DNA of 42,077 nt from Polyangiaceae bacterium (GCA_033763455.1 JANRKO010000026.1:1-42077), one strand, 5' to 3'. Counted from the stretch's first letter, positions 30,176 to 41,792 are shown. Translations and numbers: made by a program. The notes: a model not told the origin generated them from the letters alone.

Positions 30176-32044
30176 GTGGCCTCGATCGCTAGCTCCGACA
30201 CTTCGAAACAGACCTATTCCGAGAGAACAGCGCACTATCGAGCTCTCGTGCTCGAGCATGAAAGTCGCTCTCGGCTGATTTCGAACTTTCGCGGCCTAGC
30301 TTTTGGCCTTGCCGTCATCGCTCTCGGCTTTGCTCTGTTCAGAGCGGAAGCGTCGTTCCTTTTCGGTGTATCGATTATTCTCGGCATCGCGTTCCTCCTG
30401 CTCGTGGTGCTTCACGCGCGCGTGATCGCTCGCGAAGAGGATGCACGACGTTTTCTGTGGGTAAACGAGGCCGCTGAGAAGCGGGTAACGGACGCATTTA
30501 GGAGTTTGCCTGACGATGGCTCCGCCTATGCGGTTGAGAACCATCCGTACGCCGACGACATCGACATTCTGGGGCCGGGTTCGCTCTTTCAGAGGTTGTG
30601 TGTCGCCCACACTCGTTTTGGGCAGGCAACTCTCGCACAGTGGCTACTCAAGCCTGCAACTAGCAACGTGATCGCCGAACGCCAGGAGGTGGTGAAGGCG
30701 CTTGCTCCCAAGTTGGCGTTGAGGCAACAACTTGAAGCCGAAAGTTTGCTCGTCGCGGGTATGCGCTCGGGCAAGCCTACGTATAAGCCCCCCGTAGATC
30801 CGGAGCCGCTCCTCGCATGGGCGGAAGGGGCCACTCAGCTGCTCAATAAGTCGCAACTGTCCTGGGTGGCTATCTTTCTTCCCTTGCTGACGCTGACGCT
30901 GTTTGCGCTTTCTAGAACTTTGGGTTGGGCGCCCGTGGCTTGGCTGGTGCCAGCAGCCCTGCAAGTTGGGCTTGCCTTTGCGTTGGGGCCTGCCGCCAAT
31001 CGCGTATTCGGCTCGGTATCGTCCACCGAGGGCGCGTTTGTTCGGTACGGTGGGATGTTAGCCCTGCTTGATTCGATGGGCGTAGGGGGTAAATTTGCCG
31101 AAAAATGGCGAGCGCAGACTACCTCCGAGGGGATAAGCGCCTCGCTGGCCATGAAGGAATTTCGGAGCCGGCTTGGGTGGTTTGATCTTAAGCACAATGG
31201 GCTCATTTACCCGTTTGTGAATCTGATTTTTCTCTGGGACATCAACTGTACGCTGGCGCTTGAGCGCTGGCAGCGGCGTTTTGGCAGCCATGTTCGCGGC
31301 TGGTTTGAGGCTATCGGTGAATTCGAGGCGCTCTCTTCTTTGGCCGGGTTTCTCTACGACGAGCACGGCTTTGTATTTCCAGAGGTGGAGCCGGGTTTTT
31401 CTGGGTTCCTGGCTGAGGGGCTCGGGCACCCGCTGATTTCTCCGGACAAACGCGTGGTCAACGATGTGGCTCTTCCCTCAGGCGGAACAGCACTTCTGGT
31501 TACTGGCTCGAACATGTCTGGCAAAAGCACGCTCTTGCGCTCCATGGGCTTGAGCACCGTGCTTGCCTTGGCGGGCGGCCCCGTGTGCGCACAACGCCTA
31601 AGAATGGGGACGTTCAGCCTGCACACCAGCATGCGCGTTAGGGATTCGCTTCAATCGGGGGTGAGCCACTTTTATGCGGAGCTGCGCAAGCTGAAATCCG
31701 TCGTAGAGGCGGCCCAAGCCAAGGAGAATAACGTTTTCTTTTTGTTGGACGAGATTCTGCATGGCACCAATTCCAAGGAGCGTCAGCTGGGTGCGCGGTG
31801 GGTGATGAGTGAGCTGATTCAGCTTGGGGCCACCGGTGCTGTCTCCACGCACGACCTTGAGCTTTGCCAGTTACCTCCAGATCAGATGGGCCGTGTGGAG
31901 CTCGTGCATCTGCGCGAAAACGTAGAAAATGGGCAAATGGTGTTTGATTTTAAGGTGCGCAAAGGGCCCGTCACCGAAGGCAATGCGTTGCGGTTGATGC
32001 GCCTCCTGGGGTTGGCTGTGCCGCTGGTTGACGAGCCGCGCTAG
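30176..32044 (+). CDS. Membrane-anchored MutS-related ATPase (domain V only)
   Basis: Walker A TGSNMSGKST, DSL..GVSHFYAEL, Walker B LLDEILHGTN and STHD; N-terminal and central TM pairs; no mismatch-binding domain seen. Confidence 0.9.
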   Translation: MASIASSDTSKQTYSERTAHYRALVLEHESRSRLISNFRGLAFGLAVIALGFALFRAEASFLFGVSIILGIAFLLLVVLHARVIAREEDARRFLWVNEAAEKRVTDAFRSLPDDGSAYAVENHPYADDIDILGPGSLFQRLCVAHTRFGQATLAQWLLKPATSNVIAERQEVVKALAPKLALRQQLEAESLLVAGMRSGKPTYKPPVDPEPLLAWAEGATQLLNKSQLSWVAIFLPLLTLTLFALSRTLGWAPVAWLVPAALQVGLAFALGPAANRVFGSVSSTEGAFVRYGGMLALLDSMGVGGKFAEKWRAQTTSEGISASLAMKEFRSRLGWFDLKHNGLIYPFVNLIFLWDINCTLALERWQRRFGSHVRGWFEAIGEFEALSSLAGFLYDEHGFVFPEVEPGFSGFLAEGLGHPLISPDKRVVNDVALPSGGTALLVTGSNMSGKSTLLRSMGLSTVLALAGGPVCAQRLRMGTFSLHTSMRVRDSLQSGVSHFYAELRKLKSVVEAAQAKENNVFFLLDEILHGTNSKERQLGARWVMSELIQLGATGAVSTHDLELCQLPPDQMGRVELVHLRENVENGQMVFDFKVRKGPVTEGNALRLMRLLGLAVPLVDEPR

Positions 32045-32626: not shown

Positions 32627-33631
32627 TTGGAGAACGAGGTTCTCTCCGAACTCTGGCTTGAGTGGATCACGGATAACCTGCTCAACGGGGCGGACGAGGC
32701 ATCGCTCGTGGGCGAGCTTGAGCGCCAAGGCGTCGCTAAGGAATTGGCTCGTGAGATGCTCGTCGCCATCCAAGCCTCGCCGGTTTATCGCGCCGCTCGG
32801 AAACACTCAGTTAAAGGGCGTCGGTTGGAGTTGTTGCGCCGGCTGCTGGTTGCGCAGCGATGGTTTGAGCAATGCCCCCCGGAGGCAGAGCGAATAAAGC
32901 TTGGACCTGAACCTTTAGGGTTGGGCAATTGGCTGAGCACCCATACTCCCGTTATCTTTACGGACCTCGTAGCTCGTTGGCCGGGCAAGGACAATTTCAC
33001 TCCCGAGCGGCTCAAAGAACGGTTTGGCGATGTGATTCTGGACGTCGCTTGGGGCAGGCAAACGGAAGTTAACTATGACCGGAAGACGGCCCAGCTTTCG
33101 AGGAAGATGCCACTTGGGAAGTTCGTGGAAGCGCTGCAAAGTGTCGAATCAACTAACGACTTTTATGCGGTGGCTCAGAACAAGAACCTCAGCCTGCCAG
33201 AGCTTCACGCGCTATTCCAAGACATGTGGTTTCCAGAAAGTTGGCTCGATCGCGCTGACCTTGGACGCGGGTCAGCGCTCTGGCTGGGGCCGAAGGGCAC
33301 AATAACTTCGCTCCACCACGACACTTCCAACATCCTTTTCTCTCAGCTTTACGGCAGGAAACAGTTTCTACTCGTGAACCCGCTCGAGCTTGAGCTCGCC
33401 GAAGGAGCCACCGCTATGTACGCGGCACTCGATCCGGAAAGCCCGGAAGGCGAAGGCTGGTTGCAAGGAAAGCTGGTAAAGCGAGTCGTGTTGGAACCCG
33501 GGGAAACGCTACTGATTCCGGCTGGTTGGTGGCATCACGTACGAGCCCTAGAGGTGAGCGTGAGTGTGGCGGTCAACAGCCTCCGCCTGCCGAATAACTT
33601 CGACTGGTATCGTCCGGGAGAAGTAACGTGA
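32627..33631 (+). CDS. JmjC/cupin-like (Cupin_8) Fe(II)/2-oxoglutarate oxygenase
   Basis: LWLGPKGT.TSLHHD (HxD), Q..GRK and LEPGETLLIPAGWWHHV (distal His); RBS ggagg before TTG. Confidence 0.9.
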   Translation: MENEVLSELWLEWITDNLLNGADEASLVGELERQGVAKELAREMLVAIQASPVYRAARKHSVKGRRLELLRRLLVAQRWFEQCPPEAERIKLGPEPLGLGNWLSTHTPVIFTDLVARWPGKDNFTPERLKERFGDVILDVAWGRQTEVNYDRKTAQLSRKMPLGKFVEALQSVESTNDFYAVAQNKNLSLPELHALFQDMWFPESWLDRADLGRGSALWLGPKGTITSLHHDTSNILFSQLYGRKQFLLVNPLELELAEGATAMYAALDPESPEGEGWLQGKLVKRVVLEPGETLLIPAGWWHHVRALEVSVSVAVNSLRLPNNFDWYRPGEVT

Positions 33632-33633
33632 GG

Positions 33634-34170
33634 CTAAAATTCAGGCGTCTTGACAATCACCTTCACCCTGTCCGCCACGCGAATGGCTCCCATGAGTGCA
33701 CGGAAGGGCTCGATGCCAAAGAGGCTTGGTTTGATCTCGAATTCAACTGAGAGCGTGCCAGCTTGCCGTCGACCCTGAGCCTGCAGGTTGCGGCGCACGC
33801 CACGGATTTCGAGTTCACCCTGGACATCGAATGTAGGGGCTTGTGGCGTGGATTCTTGGAGCGTTCCATCAAATCGAATCAGCGGGTGCGAAGCCGCGCT
33901 GAGTACGCGCTCCCGAATGTTGCCCTCGATTTCCCGTCGATTGCTTTCGGTTAGCTGATTGGGTTGGAACACGCCGTTCTCCATGGCGCCGTCCACACGG
34001 ATACTGGTAACGGCGATCTCTGCGTGCACACGTTTTTCCGCGACAAGGTTGGCACTGCATTTCTCAACGCTCAGGCAGAGATCGTGAGCTGCGCGAGCCA
34101 AGAGTCCCTCCTTAAACGTAAAGAGCGAGATCTGGAGCGGGAGGGAGCGGGGTGCAAGAGCTTCGGACAT
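33634..34170 (-). CDS. YceI-like lipid/polyisoprenoid-binding protein
   Basis: AHDL, L.A..HP.IRF, V.G.L.IRGV.R and S.FGI.P motifs; no signal peptide. Confidence 0.8.
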   Translation of the reverse strand: MSEALAPRSLPLQISLFTFKEGLLARAAHDLCLSVEKCSANLVAEKRVHAEIAVTSIRVDGAMENGVFQPNQLTESNRREIEGNIRERVLSAASHPLIRFDGTLQESTPQAPTFDVQGELEIRGVRRNLQAQGRRQAGTLSVEFEIKPSLFGIEPFRALMGAIRVADRVKVIVKTPEF

Positions 34171-34210
34171 GGGGCACTCTAGGGTGCGTTCGGGACCCGT
34201 GGGGAGATCT

Positions 34211-34286
34211 TGGGTTGACCCAACCGGCCTGGGTTTGACCCAACCGGCCTCAAATGGCTTACTAGGGGCTCGGCCAATGGGTCAAA
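34211..34286. promoter_or_regulatory. Tandem ~20-bp repeat with palindromic core plus an inverted partial copy; candidate operator in a divergent promoter region
   Basis: tgggttgacccaaccggcc (34211-34229), tgggtttgacccaaccggcc (34230-34249), and inverted tgggtcaaa (34278-34286). Confidence 0.5.
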
Positions 34287-34446
34287 TGTCGACAAACCTC
34301 GCCTTCGCTCCCACATGTACGCACCTATCCGTCACTGGGAGGGATTTCGGTCGTCCTTCGTTCTGCAAGCTGTGCGACAAATACGGCCCCCGGCGCCCGT
34401 GGGGTCCCTGGCGCCGAATGGTTTTTGCAAACGTGGTGGCATCAAC

Positions 34447-35340
34447 GTGAGTGACTTCGACGACAAAACGAGAGTCACTCAGGTTCTCGAAAATCCGGTA
34501 AGCGAACAGGTTCCGACCACGGACTGCTTGGTTGTTATTTACAGCCAAGAACCAGGAATGCTCGGCAAACGCTTTGTGCTCGACAAGGAACCCGTGGGCG
34601 TTGGGCGCGGCGCCGACTGCGATATTGTGCTCGAAGGCGACTCGGTATCCCGGCGGCATGCTTATTTTACGAGGCGCGGGGCGAATTGGTTTGTGGCGGA
34701 TGCCAATTCAACCAATGGGACTTACCTGAACGAGGAACAGCTCGAAGGAGAGCGCATGCTCACGAACGCCGATAGGGTGAAGATCGGCCCTTCAATCCTC
34801 AAGTTCTTGTCGGGGGCTGACGCCGAAGCCAAGTATCACGAAGAAATTTATCGCATGACGATTGTGGATGGTCTCACCCAGGTCCACAATAAACGCTATT
34901 TCTTCGAAGCCCTCGAGCGCGAAATCGTTCGAGCCCGCAGACACGAACGTTCACTTAGCGTGTTGATATTTGATATCGATTTGTTCAAAAACGTGAACGA
35001 TCAATTCGGGCATCTCGCCGGCGATTACGCGCTTCGCGAGCTGGCCCGCTTGGTTCAAGACAGGATCCGCAGAGACGAAGTATTCGCCCGCTACGGTGGC
35101 GAAGAATTTGTGATTCTCCTCCCCGAAACACCCCTGGAGGGGGCCACTGCGCTTGCCGAAAGTCTTCGGAGCCGCGTAGAAGCGCATCCCTTCGTGTTTC
35201 AAAACGAAAGTATGCCGCTGACAATCAGCATTGGCTGTGCCGAACTCACCGAGCAAAAAACAGCCGAAGAGCTGATCGGGTTGGCCGATCAGAAGCTCTA
35301 CGAAGCAAAGCGCAGCGGTCGCAATCGCGTGTGCTACTGA
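34447..35340 (+). CDS. FHA-GGDEF diguanylate cyclase
   Basis: FHA motifs GR, SRRH and STNGT; DGLT..N, DID.FK.VND.FGH.AGD and RYGGEEF; GTG at 34447 (MSDFDDKTRV). Confidence 0.93.
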   Translation: MSDFDDKTRVTQVLENPVSEQVPTTDCLVVIYSQEPGMLGKRFVLDKEPVGVGRGADCDIVLEGDSVSRRHAYFTRRGANWFVADANSTNGTYLNEEQLEGERMLTNADRVKIGPSILKFLSGADAEAKYHEEIYRMTIVDGLTQVHNKRYFFEALEREIVRARRHERSLSVLIFDIDLFKNVNDQFGHLAGDYALRELARLVQDRIRRDEVFARYGGEEFVILLPETPLEGATALAESLRSRVEAHPFVFQNESMPLTISIGCAELTEQKTAEELIGLADQKLYEAKRSGRNRVCY

Positions 35341-35347
35341 GGGACAC

Positions 35348-36673
35348 ATGCACAGCGATGGCCCTCCGCCCTTCGGGGATCTTGTGGGGAACCAAGGTCC
35401 CCAGATCCGAGTCCGCCCGCCCGGGCAAAGCTCTCGCACCTGGGCGCTCCGGCTACGGCATCGAGCAGCACCCATGGGGCCACCCCGGTCGAGTGATCCC
35501 GCACGGCTGCCAATCGTGTTGTCGCTTGCCAAGGGCGATAATGTTCTTGACGTGGACGGTAACCGTTACGTCGACTTCGCGTGTGGCTTTGGTTCCCTTC
35601 TGCTAGGGCACGGGCACCCTAGCATCCTTCGCACGTTGGAGCTCCAAGCCCCGCGCATGTTGCAGGCCCTGGGGGATATGCTCTCGGCCGACGCAAAAGT
35701 GGGCCTGCTCGAACGGTTGGCGGCACTTTACCCCGGTGATGCTCAAGTAATCCTGGGGCAATCGGGTGCAGATGCGATCAGCGCCGCACTCAAGACAGCC
35801 AAGCTCTTCACTGGAAAATCTGGAGTGATCGCCTTCGAGGGTGCTTACCACGGGCTCAGCTACGGCCCGCTTGCTATTTGTGGCCTTCGAGAAAGCTACC
35901 GAGAACCATTTCTTGGCGAACTCAACCCGCACGTGGAGTTCTTGCCCTATCCGGAAACGGAGCCTCAGGCCGCTCTGGTGTACGATCGGCTGCGTAAGCG
36001 CCTGTTAGCGAACGATATTGGTGCGGTTGTGGTGGAACCACTCCTCGGTCGTGGTGGTTGTGTGGTGCCCCCTGTTGGGTTTGTGGGTGAGCTCTTGAAG
36101 CTGTCCCATGAGGCGGGTGCGCTTTTGGTGAGTGATGAGGTGTGGACGGGGCTTGGAAGAGCTGGAAAAATGCTGTTTTCGATCGGGCCGGGGGTCGTGC
36201 CAGACCTCATTTGTTTGGGCAAAGGGCTTGGTGGCGGCTTGCCGATTTCGGCTTGCCTGGGGCCCCGCGAGATCATGAACACATGGGCTCGTTCTGCCGA
36301 GGTAGTACACACCGCGACGTTTGCTGGAGCTCCGCTTGCGTGCGCTACGGCGATTACCCTGTTAAGTGAGATTGAGCGTGGGCAGCTTGTGGAGCGTTCG
36401 CAGCAGCTTGGCGAGCAATTTCGAAGTCGCTTGCAAGAGCGCCTTGGGGAGCGTGCGCGAATTACTGGAGCTGGCCTGATGATTGGCATTGATCTCGGGC
36501 AGGAACCTGGCGTGGGGTGGCGAATATCTCAGGCTTTGCTGGAGCGAGGCTATCTGGTAACAAGCGGCGGCACCCACCGTGATTCGTTGGTGCTGACGCC
36601 GGCCCTAAACGTACACGCTGATTTGTTCGAGGGGTTCGTTACAACACTCAGCAGTATTCTGAGGGGCGCTTGA
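35348..36673 (+). CDS. Class III PLP-dependent aminotransferase
   Basis: DVDGNRYVDF, F.GAYHG, VEP..G.GG, DEVWTGLGR and PDLICLGKGLGGG (PLP lysine). Confidence 0.93.
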   Translation: MHSDGPPPFGDLVGNQGPQIRVRPPGQSSRTWALRLRHRAAPMGPPRSSDPARLPIVLSLAKGDNVLDVDGNRYVDFACGFGSLLLGHGHPSILRTLELQAPRMLQALGDMLSADAKVGLLERLAALYPGDAQVILGQSGADAISAALKTAKLFTGKSGVIAFEGAYHGLSYGPLAICGLRESYREPFLGELNPHVEFLPYPETEPQAALVYDRLRKRLLANDIGAVVVEPLLGRGGCVVPPVGFVGELLKLSHEAGALLVSDEVWTGLGRAGKMLFSIGPGVVPDLICLGKGLGGGLPISACLGPREIMNTWARSAEVVHTATFAGAPLACATAITLLSEIERGQLVERSQQLGEQFRSRLQERLGERARITGAGLMIGIDLGQEPGVGWRISQALLERGYLVTSGGTHRDSLVLTPALNVHADLFEGFVTTLSSILRGA

Positions 36674-37791
36674 GCAACGCAGGCTTTGTTGAGCGATCTG
36701 AGGGATTACATCGCCGTGTGCGAGCGTTTGCGAGGGGGGAAAGCCAAGAATCGTTCGATAGCCTGGCGCTCGAACTGGCTCGATTTCAGGCCGAAAATAT
36801 TCCTGGTTTTGCCAATTTGGTCGAACGTTCGGGCTCCGCGCTCGATAGTGCAGCTACTATCCCGGCCGTCCCGAGCGAAGCTTTTCGGCTGACGCGTGTA
36901 GCCGTGCACCCACCCGAGCTCGATGTTGTTCGGTTCGAAACGAGTGGGACTTCCACTGAGGCCAAAGGGGTGCATCCCATGCGTACCACCGCGACGTACC
37001 GAGCGCTCTCCACGTCCTTTGGACGTGAAGCGCTGATGGCAGAAGATGCTGCCGTAGTAGTGGCTCTTGCCGCGGAGCCCGGAGAGCCAGTGCCTTCGTC
37101 GCTGATGTTCATGATGCGGCAATTCATGGAAGAGTTTGACCCAGCCTTTGGTAGACACATGGGTTTGCACGTCGACGCACCTTATGAGCGTTGGTTGTTG
37201 AGCTCAGCGGGGGTTAATCTTGTAGAGTTGCAACGCGCCTGCGCTTTTGCGGCTCAAATGGGGCGCCCGCTGCTCGTGCTTGCAACTTCCTTGGCTCTTG
37301 CTCGCTGCTTGGAGCAGCTACAGGGTCGCTCTTTTCTGCTTCCGGAAAAGAGCGTGGTGATGCATACGGGCGGGCCAAAAAAGCGCGGGGGCGAGCTCAA
37401 TCTTTCGGAACTGCGAACGCGTGCTGTCGAACAATTGGGCCTCGCCGCGGGCCAAATTGTCGGAGAATATGGCATGACGGAGCTTTCGAGCCAGCTTTAC
37501 GAAGGTACCGTTCGGGGCGCTCATTTGAGCGGCCCTAAAGGAGTGTTCATTCCGCCTCGCTGGCTGCGGGTGACGCCCGTAGATTCCATAACGCTGGAGC
37601 CTGTGGAGCCCGGCGGCATTGGTCTTGCTCGTTTTATGGATCTCGGCAATGTGGATTCAGCGGTGTGCGTACTCACCCAAGATCTGATCCGTGAGAGGGA
37701 TGGAGGTATTGAGCTCTTGGGGCGCAGCCCAGGAGCTGTGCCCCGAGGTTGCTCAATGGCGGTCCAGGCTTTGTTGGAAGGGGCCCAATGA
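36670..37791 (+). CDS. LuxE-like acyl-protein synthetase
   Basis: F.TSGTS P-loop, HTGG.K, EYGMTELSSQ.Y, DL.N.DS...TQD, LLGR and C-terminal RGCS; TTGA overlap with the aminotransferase stop. Confidence 0.88.
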   Translation: MSNAGFVERSEGLHRRVRAFARGESQESFDSLALELARFQAENIPGFANLVERSGSALDSAATIPAVPSEAFRLTRVAVHPPELDVVRFETSGTSTEAKGVHPMRTTATYRALSTSFGREALMAEDAAVVVALAAEPGEPVPSSLMFMMRQFMEEFDPAFGRHMGLHVDAPYERWLLSSAGVNLVELQRACAFAAQMGRPLLVLATSLALARCLEQLQGRSFLLPEKSVVMHTGGPKKRGGELNLSELRTRAVEQLGLAAGQIVGEYGMTELSSQLYEGTVRGAHLSGPKGVFIPPRWLRVTPVDSITLEPVEPGGIGLARFMDLGNVDSAVCVLTQDLIRERDGGIELLGRSPGAVPRGCSMAVQALLEGAQ

Positions 37792-38834
37792 GTCCACGCG
37801 AACGGGTTCAGGCTCTTATCGCCGCCGCCGCCGACGTGGCTCGCCCGGACACTCCGCTGGGAGTGAAGGCACGTGCTGCATGGGTTAGCACCACAGGTCT
37901 CTCTCCCGAAGGCATTGAGCTTGCGATTGAGCACTGTCTAGAGACGCACCCGAGTGAGGCGGAGATCGAGCAATTGTTGGCCAGTGTGCAACCCGCTAAA
38001 CGCGCCCTCGTGCTATTGTCCGCCAACGTGTTCGTGGGTGCATCGCGCGCCTTGGCGCTTGCGCTCGCGAGCTCCGAACACGTGATGGTGCGCGTCTCGC
38101 GCCGCGATCCGGTGCTTGCCCGCGTGCTCTTGGAAGCTTGCCCCGGCCTCTTCGAGCTTACAGATGAGCTCGCTCCAAAGGCAGAGGATGTGTTTTGGGC
38201 CTACGGCAAGAAGGAAACCCTGCGTACGGTGCGCGCGAAGTTGCCGGCTGGCGTGCACTTCATTGGGCATGGCCCGGGTGCGGGCGCGGCCCTCGTAGAG
38301 TTGCCGGAGGCGTCCCCCGAAGTTCTGATCGCGCAGGCGAAAAACCTGGTGCTGGATACTGTGCTCTTTGAACAACGCGGTTGCCTGAGCCCGCGGGCCT
38401 TTCTGGTGACTGGCTCGAAAGGCGCAGCCGAAGAGTTCACCCAGTGCGTGGTGAGTGAACTGACGCGCATGGGTGGCGAAGTGCCACGCGGAGAGCTAGC
38501 CCGTGAGGAGGAAGCCGAGTTAGTTCGCTTTCGAGACACAATGGCATACGTGGGCCGTGTGATGGACACCAAGGCAGGCCTGGTTGCTTTCTCGGAAAGC
38601 ACATCACTGAGCAGTATCACGCCCGTGGGGCGTGCGATCCATATCCAGCACTTAGCAGATCCCATCTTGCCGTTGGCGCGGATTGGCCATGTGCTCACGA
38701 ATATCGGATTTTTTGGCTCCGACGTAACGAAGGCGGAACTTCTGCGGGCCCTTCCCCATGTACGTATCGCCCCACTAGGCCAGATGCAAAGTCCACCTTT
38801 CGACGGCCCCGTGGACCGCCGCCCGCATCTTTAG
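37788..38834 (+). CDS. LuxC-like acyl-CoA/acyl-protein reductase (ALDH fold)
   Basis: SANV, AYG..ET..VR, F.GHG, D..LFEQRGCLSP (catalytic Cys region) and G.MQ.PP...DG motifs; ATGA overlap with the luxE-like stop. Confidence 0.82.
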   Translation: MSPRERVQALIAAAADVARPDTPLGVKARAAWVSTTGLSPEGIELAIEHCLETHPSEAEIEQLLASVQPAKRALVLLSANVFVGASRALALALASSEHVMVRVSRRDPVLARVLLEACPGLFELTDELAPKAEDVFWAYGKKETLRTVRAKLPAGVHFIGHGPGAGAALVELPEASPEVLIAQAKNLVLDTVLFEQRGCLSPRAFLVTGSKGAAEEFTQCVVSELTRMGGEVPRGELAREEEAELVRFRDTMAYVGRVMDTKAGLVAFSESTSLSSITPVGRAIHIQHLADPILPLARIGHVLTNIGFFGSDVTKAELLRALPHVRIAPLGQMQSPPFDGPVDRRPHL

Positions 38835-38838
38835 CGTT

Positions 38839-38876
38839 GCCGCCGGAGGCGTTTCGGGTCGCAGCGCTTCGGCGGC
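38839..38876. terminator. GC-rich hairpin between convergent genes; possible terminator
   Basis: gccgccggaggcg...cgcttcggcggc inverted repeat; no clear U-tract. Confidence 0.4.
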
Positions 38877-38904
38877 GTGTGCTGAGGCACGGCGTTGGAA
38901 CGGG

Positions 38905-39288
38905 CTAGACCTTGCTTGCCAGCTTCGAAGCTCGGTCACGCGCATTCAAAATGATGGGCTTTGCTTGTTCCGGAGTGAGCGCCAGCTGCTTAACGAGAGC
39001 CATCAACACCTTCTGCTCGCCGGAGGTCTGCTTTCCATCAGCGTGAGTGAGAAGGGCTGCGTGAGCCACGAGAGACTCCTTCTCAGCGGGCGAGAACTCC
39101 TTGGCGTTGATCTCCCCGATAGTTCTCTTCTTGCTGGCGAAGTCCTGGAGCGCTGCTTCTTCTTCTTCACTCGCGCCAAATGCCCAAAGCAAGGCTTCGA
39201 TCATTCCCTGTTCAGGCTCGGTGAACTTTCCATCAGCCCATGCCACTGCCACTAGTGCCTTGAAGAGATTTGTTTCTGATGGGGTCAT
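38905..39288 (-). CDS. TerB-family protein
   Basis: LVAVAWADG.F...E and ADG.....E duplicated motif; ATG 39288. Confidence 0.85.
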   Translation of the reverse strand: MTPSETNLFKALVAVAWADGKFTEPEQGMIEALLWAFGASEEEEAALQDFASKKRTIGEINAKEFSPAEKESLVAHAALLTHADGKQTSGEQKVLMALVKQLALTPEQAKPIILNARDRASKLASKV

Positions 39289-39512
39289 TGCCAATGAGAA
39301 GGGTAACGCCCGGGCCAACAGCTGACTAGGGGTTACCGGCGGACCTCGGATAGGCCAAGAGTCAGGGGGCCGGCCGCGGCAAGATTGCCACGTCGGAGGG
39401 CCCTGCGCGACGCAGGGACCGTACTTGCTATGACAAGTATCTGCTGTCGTCAGGCGACGTTGGGGTCGGAGCGTGCGCCGCTGCTGTAGCGTTTGGGGTG
39501 AGCGCGTAACGC

Positions 39513-41792
39513 TCAGCCCGCCCTCATCCGATTGGCGCGCGCGACAGTGATGGCTGTCATGTGCACGATGGTGTCCACGCTGGCTCCTTGCTGAAGCACG
39601 TTGATGGGCTTTTTGAGTCCCAACACCATCGGCCCCACGACATCCACATTGCCTGTGGCCGCCAATATCTTGTACGCGGCATTGCCAGCGTCCAGGTTGG
39701 GGAAGATCAAGACGTTGGCCGACCCCTTGAGGCTTGAAAAAGGGTAAGGTGTGCGGTCGTCCTCGTTCAAGGCTACGTTGGCTTGCATCTCCCCATCAAT
39801 GATCAGATCTGGCATCTCGGCCTTCACGAGCGCGGTAGCCTTGGCCACCTTGGTGGATTGACTGTGCGGAGCATCTCCAAAGTTTGAGAAGGAAAGCATC
39901 GCGACGCGAGGCTCAATGCCCAGGTCGCGAACGGCTTTGGCAGCAAGGATGGCTATTTCTGCTAGTGTTTCGGCATCTGGGTCGATGTTGATGGTGGTGT
40001 CCGCGAAGAACTTTACGCCGGTTTTGCTCACAATCATGTACATGCCGGCCGCTCGATGAGCACCATCGCGCATTCCGATAATCTGCAGCGCTGGGCGGAT
40101 AGTGGCGGGGTAATCTTGACGATAACCTGCAACGAGTCCGTCAGCGTCGCCAAGCTCGACCATCAACATGCCAAAAGTGGTGCGTGATTGGCGAACAACC
40201 TTTTCCGCCTGGTGAAGGGTTACTCCACGGCGTTGCCGCTTCTTCCAGAACGCCTCCACGTAGAGCTCCAACTTGGGATCTTCCCGTGGCTCCAAAATAG
40301 TGACGCCATCCAGATCCAAGCCCAGCTCCTGCTTGAGCCGCAAGATGCGGTCTTTGGAGCCCAAAAGAATGGGCTCGGCAATTTTTGACTCAATCACGAG
40401 CTCTGCCGCCCGCAAGATGTTGGCCTGATCTCCTTCTGGGAACACGATCCGCGCGGGGCGTTCTTTGGCAGCCTCGGTGATGTGCCAGAGCACACGCCGT
40501 GTGGGAGAAATCTTATGGTAGAGGCGCGCGGTGTATTCCTCGATATCCAGCGTTTCACGCGCCACGCCGCTTTCCATCGCGGCTTTGGCGACGGCGGGCG
40601 CTACCCAGTAGAGCACGCGGGAATCGAAAGGTTTCGGGATAATGTACTTTTTGCTGAAGCGCAGGCGGGTCCGCCCGTACGCTCGGAGAACATCGTCGGG
40701 TACTTCTTCTCGCGCGAGCGCTGCCAGTGCGCGCGCCGCTGCCACTTTCATCTCTTCGTTGACAGTGCTGGCGCCCACGTCCAAGGCGCCGCGGAAAATA
40801 TACGGGAACCCAAGGACATTGTTCACCTGGTTCGGGTAATCGCTACGACCTGTAGCGGCAATGGCGTCAGGCCGTGCCCGAATCACCGCTTCGTAGTCGA
40901 TTTCTGGGTCGGGATTGGCCAGCGCAAAGACGATGGGATCCTTGGCCATGGTAAGCAGCATCTCCTCGGTTACCAAGCCTGAAGTGGAAAGCCCGATCAT
41001 CACATCCGCACCCTTTAGGCAATCCGCGATAGTGCGCCGAGGATCCGAAGCTGGGCGGGCAAACGGCCGCCGAAAATCATCCAGATCGGCGCGCCCGTGG
41101 ATAATGATGCCATTCAAATCCAGCATCGTAATGTTTTCGATCTTTACGCCGATCCGCGTCCACATGCGCATGCAAGAGGTGGCGGCAGCGCCGGCGCCGA
41201 TGCAGGTGACCTGAAGATCCTCCAGCGCTTTTTCCTGGAGTGCTGCGGCGTTAATCAGCGCGGCACTCGAAATGATCGCAGTGCCATGCTGGTCATCATG
41301 CATCACGGGGATCTTCATTTGATCGCGCAGGGCTTGCTCGATATAGAAGCAATCAGGCGCTCGAATGTCTTCGAGGTTGATGCCGCCAAACGTGGGCTCT
41401 AGCGATCGCACAATCTCCACAAAGCGAACTGGATCCGTCTCGTCAATTTCCAGATCGAAGACGTCAATGTCCGCGAAGCGCTTGAAGAGCACGCCTTTGC
41501 CCTCCATCACGGGCTTGGCCGCGCGTGGCCCAATATTGCCAAGGCCGAGCACCGCCGTGCCGTTGGTGATCACGGCTACGAGATTGCGGCGCGCTGTGTA
41601 GCGATCCACCGCGTCCGGATCGTCGCGGATTGCCAAGCATGGCACCGCAACGCCTGGTGAATAGGCGAGCGATAGATCAAATTGGCTAGCAACAGGCTTG
41701 GTGGGAACCACCTCGATTTTTCCGGGGCGGCCCTCCGCGTGGTAAGCGAGCGCTTGTTCTCTTTGTCTGAGCTTCGACCAATCCGGTTGCAT
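39513..41792 (-). CDS. maeB: NADP-dependent malic enzyme with C-terminal phosphotransacetylase-like domain
   Basis: [44 protein letters not shown] and [15 protein letters not shown]-like domain RIVFPEG...DGEMQ...PNLDAGN; 759 aa. Confidence 0.97.

Follow-up and report, generated by a model that had tools for sequence, protein, structure and literature searches.

PigE, TamH and MxcG/MxcL are relatives in a common logic in which a thioester is reduced to an aldehyde that is then transaminated; in carboxylic acid reductase (CAR, A-T-R) a phosphopantetheine carrier domain sits between the adenylation and reductase domains. In the LuxC-LuxE fatty acid reductase of Photobacterium phosphoreum (PDB 7XC6), a cysteine near the C-terminus of the adenylating enzyme (Cys364 of LuxE) carries the acyl group and passes it to the active-site cysteine of a reductase with the aldehyde dehydrogenase (ALDH) fold (PMC12041015). 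A combination of such a reductase with amination was reported in 2025 for tambjamine BE-18591 of Streptomyces, where an ACP-dependent LuxC-like reductase (TabE), which groups in the LuxC-containing cluster of the ALDH superfamily, and a stand-alone omega-transaminase (TabA) yield dodecylamine (bioRxiv 10.1101/2025.08.11.669332). In queuosine synthesis, QueC converts 7-carboxy-7-deazaguanine (CDG, the QueE product) to the nitrile preQ0 and QueF reduces this to the amine preQ1 (7-aminomethyl-7-deazaguanine), a net change that corresponds exactly to acid to aldehyde to aminomethyl group (PMC13740343).

The window (the whole stretch of 42,077 nucleotides analysed here, from a Polyangiaceae bacterium) was confirmed to contain consecutive open reading frames for a class III aminotransferase (AT), a LuxE-like and a LuxC-like protein (Table 1). 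This triad resembles LuxC-LuxE in that both cysteines are conserved and the model of the LuxC-like protein matches 7xc6_A best; it differs in its remote sequence similarity, in the size of the LuxC-like protein (348 versus 477 residues, with a PF05893 match spanning profile positions 87-333 of 401), in having a dedicated AT as the putative aldehyde user in place of luciferase, and in a substrate that is probably no fatty acid. The original prediction had noted that luxA, luxB and luxD are missing from the window; for the luciferase genes this extends to the whole 6.56-Mb assembly (93.7% complete), in which no PF00296 (Bac_luciferase) match was found; a bacterial lux operon was rejected on this basis. 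CAR was also rejected, as Pfam shows only LuxE and LuxC domains in both proteins and in their fused forms. With TabE/TabA the triad would share reduction of a thioester to an aldehyde and then omega-transamination of this aldehyde, which yields a primary amine; unlike TabE/TabA and its kin, which use acyl-ACP, acyl-CoA or carrier-bound thioesters to make lipid-like tails in secondary metabolism, it has a LuxE-type, putatively self-acylating activator instead of a carrier and behaves as a core gene set of the phylum. The original prediction knew of no characterised example, a statement that now has to be qualified in view of the LuxC-like reductase and omega-transaminase of TabE/TabA.

Table 1. 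Features of the AT-LuxE-LuxC locus, with positions counted from the first nucleotide of the window.
Feature	Position	Strand	Evidence
FHA-GGDEF diguanylate cyclase gene	34315..35340	+	Pfam GGDEF 160 bits, FHA 68.8 bits
Class III (fold type I) PLP aminotransferase, distinct subfamily	35348..36673	+	PF00202 275.7 bits (cut-off 30.5)
Codon of Arg235 (EPLLGRGG), subfamily signature residue	36050..36052	+	Arg in 58/58 sequences
Codon of PLP-binding Lys292 (GKGLGGG)	36221..36223	+	Lys in 58/58 sequences
LuxE-like adenylate-forming enzyme, TTG start	36670..37791	+	PF04443 23.4 bits, below 24.9 cut-off
Codon of Cys361 (RGCS), 13th residue from C-terminus	37750..37752	+	Motif position and conservation
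LuxC-like thioester reductase, aldehyde dehydrogenase superfamily	37788..38834	+	PF05893 69.7 bits (cut-off 21)
Codon of catalytic Cys199	38382..38384	+	Invariant in 17 sequences; at least 95% conserved in 54

Conservation of the three genes as a unit

Both 4-bp stop/start overlaps proposed originally are present, TTGA between the AT and LuxE-like genes (36670-36673) and ATGA between the LuxE-like and LuxC-like genes (37788-37791). A longer LuxC-like frame, from a TTG at 37749, is also possible. In the neighbourhood survey the collinear AT-LuxE-LuxC triad was seen at 17 of the 29 non-Bacteroidota genome loci and again in 30 of 40 regions taken from across the phylum. Of the 23 loci holding both the AT and the LuxE-like gene, 11 retain the 4-bp overlap between them (with start codons chosen by us), overlapping stop and start codons of the triad persist in distant lineages, and LuxE-LuxC fusion proteins occur in two loci (L009 and L144). 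The alternative order LuxE-LuxC-AT is also found. The LuxE-like gene is near-universal in the phylum and mostly single-copy, being present in 319 of 401 genomes. This arrangement is far from chance, and because order and overlaps are conserved and LuxE-LuxC fusions exist, the sequences support the AT, LuxE-like and LuxC-like genes as one functional unit. LuxE-like genes of Bacteroidota are solitary, with unrelated neighbours, a point against the CDG to preQ1 reading given below.

The FHA-GGDEF gene ends 7 bases 5' of the AT start and possibly belongs to the same operon, but is outside the enzyme chemistry of the triad. In Polyangia-type loci this gene is conserved upstream of the AT (14/29 non-Bacteroidota loci, 61-72% identity), whereas distant triads lack it.

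Catalytic residues and predicted folds

Aminotran_3 and LuxC were both matched above their Pfam cut-offs, whereas the LuxE match fell just below and was restricted to the C-terminal part of the protein (Table 1). Among 120 listed relatives (51-65% identity) of the LuxE-like protein, a precomputed PF04443 hit is nonetheless present in 91, and the fused relative in L144 scores 103.8 bits to it over profile positions 35-389. The motifs originally described as intact were all found and are conserved in relatives: in the LuxE-like protein these are TSGTS (residues 91-95), EYGMTE (266-271) and RGCS (359-362), and an alignment of 118 sequences shows at least 95% conservation of TSGT, YGMTE and RGC. 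Cys361, of 373 residues, does not vary across 20 sequences and reaches at least 95% conservation in the 118, and the RGCS cysteine is retained at the LuxE-LuxC junction of both fused proteins; its counterpart is the acyl-carrying Cys364 of Photobacterium LuxE (PMC12041015).

The AF2 model of the LuxE-like protein (pLDDT 89.1) has a PaaK-like fold, and this together with TSGT and YGMTE shows that the ANL fold and nucleotide motifs are present. Its closest solved folds are AMP ligases of the PaaK family acting on aryl or short acids (Z 21-24; PaaK1/2, ClxA, NatL2 and 2-hydroxyisobutyryl-CoA ligase), led by PaaK2 (2y4o; Z 23.8, rmsd 3.5 over 307 residues); the LuxE structure 7xc6_E is not among the 50 structural matches listed. 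Unlike these ligases, which transfer the acyl group to CoA or a partner amine, the LuxE-like protein retains the LuxE-type C-terminal cysteine. Its relationship to true LuxE is remote (NCBIfam 15.9 against a cut-off of 550), and PDB sequence E-values of the LuxE-like and LuxC-like proteins to LuxE and LuxC are 0.002 and 0.012 respectively. The LuxC-like protein carries QRGCLSP at residues 196-202, the cysteine of which aligns with that of QQACFS in 7xc6_A, and its AF2 model (pLDDT 93.8) has LuxC 7xc6_A as the top PDB match (E 5.4e-15; TM 0.76, normalised to the query length), with other ALDHs ranking lower. Assignment as the lux-operon long-chain fatty acyl reductase equivalog was rejected (NF052251, 27.2 bits versus 750).

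In the AT, GKGLGGG occupies residues 291-297, and Asp263, like Lys292, is invariant in 58/58 orthologues; the corresponding aspartate of class III aminotransferases binds the pyridine nitrogen. GabT/ArgD-type enzymes use two arginines for carboxylate binding, which we take to be Arg141 and Arg398 in E. coli GabT numbering. Neither is present in any of the 58 orthologues, which have L/M/V at the first position and Q/V/S/A/T/G at the second (Leu170 and Val415 in the window protein), and the glutamate of EPxQGEGG is replaced by the invariant Arg235, found also in 4/4 full-length AT orthologues that are unlinked. ArgD of the same genome retains both carboxylate arginines and the glutamate. With our own HMM, triad ATs score 400-630 bits against 132-302 for the paralogues of the genome, and all NCBIfam equivalogs are below cut-off for the AT (best 257.9 vs 552; argD 250.3 vs 410; GabT 205.6 vs 507; bioA 174.2 vs 405). 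An ArgD, GabT, BioA or putrescine aminotransferase was rejected on the basis of these scores and the lost arginines; the genome has its own ArgD, BioA, LAT and HemL on other contigs, from which the AT is distinct. Since both carboxylate-binding arginines are absent, the active site fits an acceptor that is neither an amino nor an oxo acid, and we propose that the AT aminates an aldehyde, 7-formyl-7-deazaguanine in our preferred reading.

Queuosine genes and the candidate substrate

The acid to aldehyde to primary amine chemistry originally predicted gains support from the conserved unit and its catalytic residues, and we consider it reasonably probable that the triad is a carrier-free relay of this kind, most likely taking CDG to preQ1 and bypassing QueC and QueF. 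The LuxE-like enzyme would adenylate the acid with ATP and load itself as a thioester on Cys361; this arm would then deliver the acyl group to the LuxC-like reductase at its Cys199, the reductase would free the aldehyde with NAD(P)H, and the dedicated PLP aminotransferase would convert the aldehyde to the amine. With CDG as the most likely substrate, 7-formyl-7-deazaguanine would be the intermediate and preQ1 the product, to be inserted into tRNA by Tgt and processed further by QueA; the triad would thus stand in for both QueC, which turns the acid into the nitrile, and QueF, which turns the nitrile into the amine. Each reaction of this relay, as well as its substrate, amino donor and reductant, is our inference. 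The CDG to preQ1 reading is based on the gap in the pathway, the exclusion with QueC/QueF, the queE neighbourhood and the AT active site.

With regard to the pathway gap, this genome encodes QueD (108.6 bits, cut-off 89.25), two Tgt genes and QueA (401 bits), as well as a QueE-like protein whose best five NCBIfam matches are the five QueE models, although it reaches none of the QueE cut-offs (101 bits vs 300); neither QueC nor QueF was found in the assembly at its 93.7% completeness. In the complete genome of Minicystis rosea DSM 24000, which has the triad, a QueD homologue 2.4 kb away, Tgt and a QueE-type protein (273 bits), no QueC or QueF was found either.

The exclusion was counted in one sample of 401 genomes of the phylum, tallied by hand, with strong QueF defined as E <= 1e-30 and strong QueC as E <= 1e-19. 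Strong QueF occurs in 0/319 genomes positive for the LuxE-like gene versus 51/82 negative ones, and strong QueC in 9/319 versus 61/82; these genomes are related and not independent, so the counts overstate the number of events. A weaker QueF-family match (54-70 bits, above the Pfam cut-off) is present in 14 of the 319 positive genomes, and 21 of the 401 have neither system. Switches are also seen within families: in family f6, QueC and QueF are confined to G285, the sole genome that lacks the LuxE-like gene, and the same pattern holds for G138 in f35. Among the 12 genomes behind the distant loci QueF is found in none, QueC in two and Tgt in all; two genomes (G407 and G408) have an AT-LuxE pair together with QueC.

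In 15 of 80 metagenome loci the gene immediately upstream of a member of the AT subfamily, and on its strand, is a QueE-like ORF. NCBIfam scoring of nine of these ORFs placed six above the TIGR04349 QueE cut-off (304-311 vs 300) and three at 256-260. Loci L144 and L145 have the order queE-AT-LuxE-LuxC. Against the CDG to preQ1 reading, our HMMs found no LuxE or LuxC beside the AT in 46 of the 80 loci, in which many contigs are short and some extend more than 5 kb downstream.

Under the CDG to preQ1 reading, the triad would have the same start compound and product as QueC plus QueF, and the same slot between QueE and Tgt, with a complementary phyletic pattern. The proteins and chemistry are unrelated: the triad would proceed without an amide or nitrile, via an aldehyde, and its nitrogen would come by PLP-mediated transfer from an amino donor rather than from ammonia. 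By the usual stoichiometries its route would require one ATP and one hydride versus two of each for QueC plus QueF. We judge it somewhat more probable than the contrary that preQ1 is made nitrile-free in most Myxococcota, and in lineages of several other phyla, by a LuxE/LuxC-type reductase acting on CDG and a dedicated PLP aminotransferase. If true, this is a previously undescribed preQ1 route, QueC and QueF having until now been the sole described one; our literature searches found no description of such a nitrile-free route.

Alternative substrates, partners and direction

It is highly improbable that the AT merely adjoins an unrelated LuxE/LuxC pair. LuxE-LuxC does occur without an adjoining AT (4/29 loci and 5/40 regions), and in Labilithrix (L013) the genes of the triad are scattered across 9 kb with unrelated genes between them; the stop/start overlaps are, however, kept across distant lineages, the order LuxE-LuxC-AT also exists, and in the five genomes tested in which the AT is not adjacent one signature-bearing orthologue was found elsewhere in every case. 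Equally hard to credit is a catabolic direction, with deamination of an amine and oxidation of the resulting aldehyde by the LuxC-like protein: transamination is reversible and LuxC belongs to the ALDH superfamily, but an ATP-using adenylating enzyme with a conserved acyl-carrying cysteine would have no purpose in oxidation. The fatty acid to fatty aldehyde to fatty amine route of the original prediction, serving an amino-lipid, the envelope or a signal, is very unlikely, although LuxE/LuxC homologues of luminous bacteria use myristic acid (PMC12041015), the Streptomyces LuxC-like reductase and transaminase yield dodecylamine (bioRxiv 10.1101/2025.08.11.669332) and luciferase-free luxE/luxC pairs in flagellin glycosylation islands have been interpreted as lipid-related. 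Against it, the proteins are remote in sequence from true LuxE and LuxC, the LuxE-like protein comes closest in fold to aryl/short-acid ligases of the PaaK type, no conserved lipid, ACP or thioesterase genes adjoin the triad, and the QueC/QueF exclusion and queE neighbourhood would be left unexplained; nor does its secondary-metabolite flavour suit a gene near-universal in the phylum.

A different small acid, for instance a dicarboxylate or the side chain of an amino acid, which would give a diamine or omega-amino acid, is a more serious if still unlikely candidate; QueC and QueF would then have been lost, preQ1 salvaged, and QueD and QueE would serve other ends. The nearest characterised relatives of the AT use ornithine derivatives, GABA and putrescine, but both carboxylate-binding arginines of those relatives are missing from all 58 ATs. 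A member of the YhhQ/Vut_1 family (158 bits), a salvage-type transporter, is encoded in this genome, so that salvage of preQ0 or preQ1 could fill the pathway gap; such a transporter was, however, found in only 3/8 genomes of the family, while a QueD match was found in 8/8, and QueD and QueE-type genes persist without QueC/QueF where salvage alone needs neither. Within the phylum, que genes adjoin the triad in only two of 120 loci (L008 and L100; tblastn), leaving it away from them in 118, and no preQ1 riboswitch was found at the Rfam gathering score in the window, eight distant loci or 13 queE-AT loci, both of which favour another small acid. In favour of CDG as the substrate, a QueE-like gene lies directly upstream of the AT in the 15 metagenome loci, and the within-family switches couple loss of the unit with the presence of QueC and QueF.

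A conserved unit of three genes

A route to preQ1 that is independent of QueC and QueF is our best-supported explanation for the aminotransferase, LuxE-like and LuxC-like genes and, judged from sequence comparison, a rather probable one. The carboxylic acid of 7-carboxy-7-deazaguanine (CDG, the QueE product) would pass through an aldehyde to an aminomethyl group, which is the net change to preQ1. The original prediction of three open reading frames joined by short overlaps was borne out, with matching coordinates and junctions (TTGA and ATGA, read out from the sequence) and every named motif present. None of the three proteins received an NCBIfam equivalog assignment. The absence of luciferase also held genome-wide, with zero luciferase-family matches in the assembly (6.56 Mb, 92 contigs, 93.7% complete), which encodes one true LuxC-type and one LuxE-type gene.

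Locations of the features discussed, in the window or in the genome or locus named
Feature	Sequence	Position	Strand	Remarks
MutS-related gene	window	30176-32044		3 kb upstream of the triad
FHA-GGDEF diguanylate cyclase gene	window	34315-35340	+	ends 7 bases before the aminotransferase gene
Class III aminotransferase gene	window	35348-36673	+	Pfam Aminotran_3, 275.7 bits
TTGA junction	window	36670-36673
LuxE-like gene	window	36670-37791	+	TTG start; Pfam LuxE, 23.4 bits, just below the cut-off of 24.9
ATGA junction	window	37788-37791
LuxC-like gene	window	37788-38834	+	Pfam LuxC, 69.7 bits
Two Tgt genes (L134, L135)	window's genome	C32:828-1883 and C52:37489-38544		TIGR00430
ICMT/PEMT-like membrane methyltransferase	L153	7182-7613
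ICMT/PEMT-like membrane methyltransferase	L167	2063-4324		N-terminal part
ICMT/PEMT-like membrane methyltransferase	L175	7332-7757
Second FHA-GGDEF-like gene	L012	8358-9131		after LuxC
Second FHA-GGDEF-like gene	L017	8477-9250		after LuxC
MutS2-type gene (MutS_V + Smr)	L027	8269-10824		directly after LuxC
MutS2-type gene (MutS_V + Smr)	L028	7735-10980		directly after LuxC
c-di-GMP-I-GGC riboswitch	L028	1131-1205	-	about 3.4 kb upstream of the triad
rpsD-rpoA-rplQ context of the LuxE-like gene	L020	4096-4647
rpsD-rpoA-rplQ context of the LuxE-like gene	L030	3670-5915

Relatives of the LuxE-like protein number at least 1474 in the protein collection, and PF04443 was found in 91 of the 120 listed. 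From 595 relatives in the genome collection 80 loci were kept, 51 from Bacteroidota and 29 from other bacteria. These were mapped by tblastn of the three proteins together with an HMM of LuxC-like proteins, in place of a greedy longest-ORF clustering of neighbourhoods that was dropped for its antisense ORFs and merged frames in G+C-rich DNA. Among the 29 non-Bacteroidota loci, 17 had a collinear aminotransferase-LuxE-LuxC arrangement and two a dispersed or rearranged triad (L013 and L007); four had the aminotransferase and LuxE only (two of them at contig ends), four LuxE and LuxC only, and two LuxE alone. In the 51 Bacteroidota loci the LuxE-like gene (25–33% identity) is solitary beside unrelated genes such as tyrS. 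The Bacteroidota loci within L029–L082 have no LuxC-like or aminotransferase gene adjoining it, and tyrS is often near; Bacteroides thetaiotaomicron, used as a search control, has both QueC and QueF.

Within the window's phylum the LuxE-like gene was present in 319 of 401 genomes, mostly in single copy. Forty regions spread over the families of the phylum comprised 30 collinear triads, four pairs of aminotransferase and LuxE, five of LuxE and LuxC, and one LuxE alone. Five genomes of the latter two kinds each have one unlinked aminotransferase orthologue, scoring 477–571 bits versus 271–288 for the next paralogue. The three genes are one conserved unit. Eleven of 23 loci, the most distant included, preserve the 4-bp overlap between the aminotransferase and LuxE genes (with start codons chosen by the analyst), and LuxE-LuxC fusions, in which RGCS marks the junction, occur in L009 and L144. 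Genes inserted within the triad in L013, L014 and L018 (EF-Tu, a Mur ligase, an alpha/beta hydrolase, SIS, GH8 and a trypsin-like protease) are all unrelated and gave no clue to the substrate. In two distant genomes (L020 and L030) the LuxE-like gene follows a ribosomal cluster, a housekeeping context, and in L020 the aminotransferase gene lies between the two.

Properties of the three enzymes

The window's genome has ten class III aminotransferase genes. Its ArgD, BioA, lysine 6-transaminase and HemL are encoded on other contigs, each above its own cut-off, indicating that the triad aminotransferase is a separate paralogue and ruling it out as the housekeeping ArgD. An HMM of the triad aminotransferases scored triad members at 400–630 bits and the genome's own paralogues at 132–302. 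Lys292 and Asp263 are present in all 58 orthologues compared. In the same set the two Arg positions that we take to be the carboxylate-binding sites of GabT/ArgD-type enzymes are occupied by Leu/Met/Val and by Gln/Val/Ser/Ala/Thr/Gly, the Glu of EPxQGEGG is replaced by an invariant Arg235, and the Gln following DEV is aromatic in most. An aminotransferase apparently lacking the usual carboxylate anchors would be consistent with conversion of CDG to preQ1.

The best solved match to the LuxC-like model (pLDDT 93.8) is LuxC from the Photobacterium LuxC-LuxE complex (7xc6_A, E 5.4e-15, TM 0.76), which outranks ordinary aldehyde dehydrogenases; the active-site Cys of that LuxC has its aligned counterpart in the conserved Cys199. 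The LuxE-like model (pLDDT 89.1) has an adenylate-forming fold, and the closest solved folds belong to PaaK-family AMP ligases for aryl and short acids, with PaaK2 (Z 23.8) followed by ClxA, NatL2 and 2-hydroxyisobutyryl-CoA ligase. The LuxE chain 7xc6_E was absent among the listed structural matches, which is no argument against kinship. The protein keeps TSGT and YGMTE as well as a C-terminal RGC motif, with at least 95% conservation across 118 sequences, whose Cys361 is 13 residues from the end; in Photobacterium LuxE, Cys364 near the C-terminus brings the acyl group into LuxC (PMC12041015). An activating enzyme whose modelled fold is nearest to those handling aromatic acids would likewise be consistent with CDG as substrate.

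Queuosine genes and the searches for QueC and QueF

LuxE-like, QueC and QueF genes were counted by hand in the one 401-genome sample of the phylum, with strong QueF defined as E ≤ 1e-30 and strong QueC as E ≤ 1e-19; the QueC count leaves out weak matches in long frames that span the first 60 profile positions only. Strong QueF was present in 0 of 319 LuxE-like-positive genomes versus 51 of 82 negative ones and strong QueC in 9 of 319 versus 61 of 82, counts that overstate the number of independent events given the shared history of related genomes. Of the 30 families at the head of the list, 17 have the LuxE-like gene and QueF occurs in one of these (f6), only in the single genome without the LuxE-like gene; QueF was found in nine of the 13 families lacking it. 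Within-family switches were seen in f6, f35, f38 and f42. Contrary to the pattern, neither system was found in 21 of the 401 genomes. The 12 genomes of the most distant loci had QueF in none, QueC in two, Tgt in all 12 and a QueE-type protein in eight.

Also contrary to it, 14 of the 319 positive genomes, in families f37, f42 and f49, have QueF-family matches of a second, weaker class (54–70 bits, E 1e-14 to 1e-19), which may be a different T-fold enzyme. Weak matches were also present in two LuxE-like-negative genomes, G377 (59 bits) and G138 (72 bits), and that of G138 may be canonical QueF since it lies beside queC.

The window's genome encodes QueD (TIGR03367, 108.6 bits versus a cut-off of 89.25), two Tgt proteins that clear the TIGR00430 equivalog cut-off (424 and 414 bits) and, adjoining one Tgt gene, QueA (401 bits). 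Two Tgt copies are also present in genomes G402, G405, G408 and G409. Its QueE-like protein, a 236-residue radical-SAM protein, is divergent: the five QueE models are its best five NCBIfam matches, the highest a full-length match of 101 bits, short of the QueE cut-offs. Searches for QueC and QueF gave no match in this 93.7%-complete genome and none in the complete Minicystis rosea DSM 24000 genome, where the triad occurs with Tgt, a QueE-type protein (273 bits) and, 2.4 kb from LuxC, a homologue of QueD. No preQ1 riboswitch reached the gathering score in the window, eight distant loci or 13 queE-aminotransferase loci.

A scan of metagenome contigs, using an aminotransferase alignment led by a distant member, yielded 551 relatives, and 80 loci were retained. 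In 15 of them the aminotransferase gene is immediately preceded by a QueE-like ORF of the same orientation; six of nine tested exceed the TIGR04349 cut-off (304–311 versus 300) and three score 256–260. The order queE-aminotransferase-LuxE-LuxC is found in L144 and L145, and three loci have queE-aminotransferase-ksgA. Five other queE-linked loci carry an insert of 1.4–3.5 kb ahead of LuxE; in three of these five (L153, L167 and L175) it contains a gene for an ICMT/PEMT-like membrane methyltransferase. An HMM search found no LuxE or LuxC within the stretch covered in 46 of the 80 loci. Within the window's phylum the triad is rarely beside que genes (2 of 120 loci).

Proposed reaction and operon surroundings

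The acid to aldehyde to amine logic of the original prediction stands; its fatty-acid reading is unlikely, and the QueC/QueF-independent route to preQ1 is better supported. No lipid, carrier-protein or thioesterase gene lies near the triad in the window. A YhhQ/Vut_1 protein is encoded in the window's genome, so salvage is possible; in the family, YhhQ/Vut_1 was found in three of eight genomes and a QueD match in all eight. Possible salvage, the divergence of the QueE-like protein and the negative riboswitch searches weigh against the preQ1 reading. The salvage configurations given in the accessible sections of the YhhQ paper do not include QueD and QueE present with QueC and QueF absent.

Amine formation by reduction and then transamination has precedents in PigE, TamH and MxcG/MxcL. 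TabE/TabA follow the same succession (bioRxiv 10.1101/2025.08.11.669332), and luciferase-free luxE/luxC pairs are likewise known, uncharacterised, from flagellin glycosylation islands (PMC7874193, PMC4875605). A November 2026 review, in its accessible text, places QueC and QueF alone between CDG and preQ1 (PMC13740343), and 7-formyl-7-deazaguanine is described as a side product of QueF mutants. In the literature searched, mostly outside subscription journals and supplements, we found neither an aldehyde route from CDG to preQ1 nor LuxC, LuxE and an aminotransferase as a queuosine route. Queuosine synthesis is currently regarded as solved; if the preQ1 route is correct, a whole phylum scored as non-de novo or salvage-dependent would be re-annotated, genome-based forecasts of how microbial communities share queuosine would shift, many genes annotated as acyl-protein synthetase or acyl-CoA reductase would gain a function, and a compact three-enzyme, carrier-protein-free amination of a heteroaromatic acid would become usable in biocatalysis.

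Consensus scans of 33500–39600 gave promoters (0 versus 1.4 expected) and terminator-like sites (9 versus 7.1 expected) not above chance. Downstream of the triad the window has, on the opposite strand, a TerB-like gene and a malic enzyme-PTA fusion, and farther upstream YceI, a JmjC/cupin protein and a MutS-related gene, among others. The FHA-GGDEF gene is better conserved than the three enzymes (61–72% identity in 14 loci versus about 35–57%), and this conservation, together with a second FHA-GGDEF-like gene (35–37% identity) in L012 and L017, hints that cyclic-di-GMP signalling is tied to the triad operon in Polyangia-type genomes. The MutS-related gene is similarly placed in six Polyangia-type loci, and two distant loci (L027 and L028) have a MutS2-type gene. 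L028 also carries a c-di-GMP-I-GGC riboswitch (70.3 bits versus a gathering score of 59).
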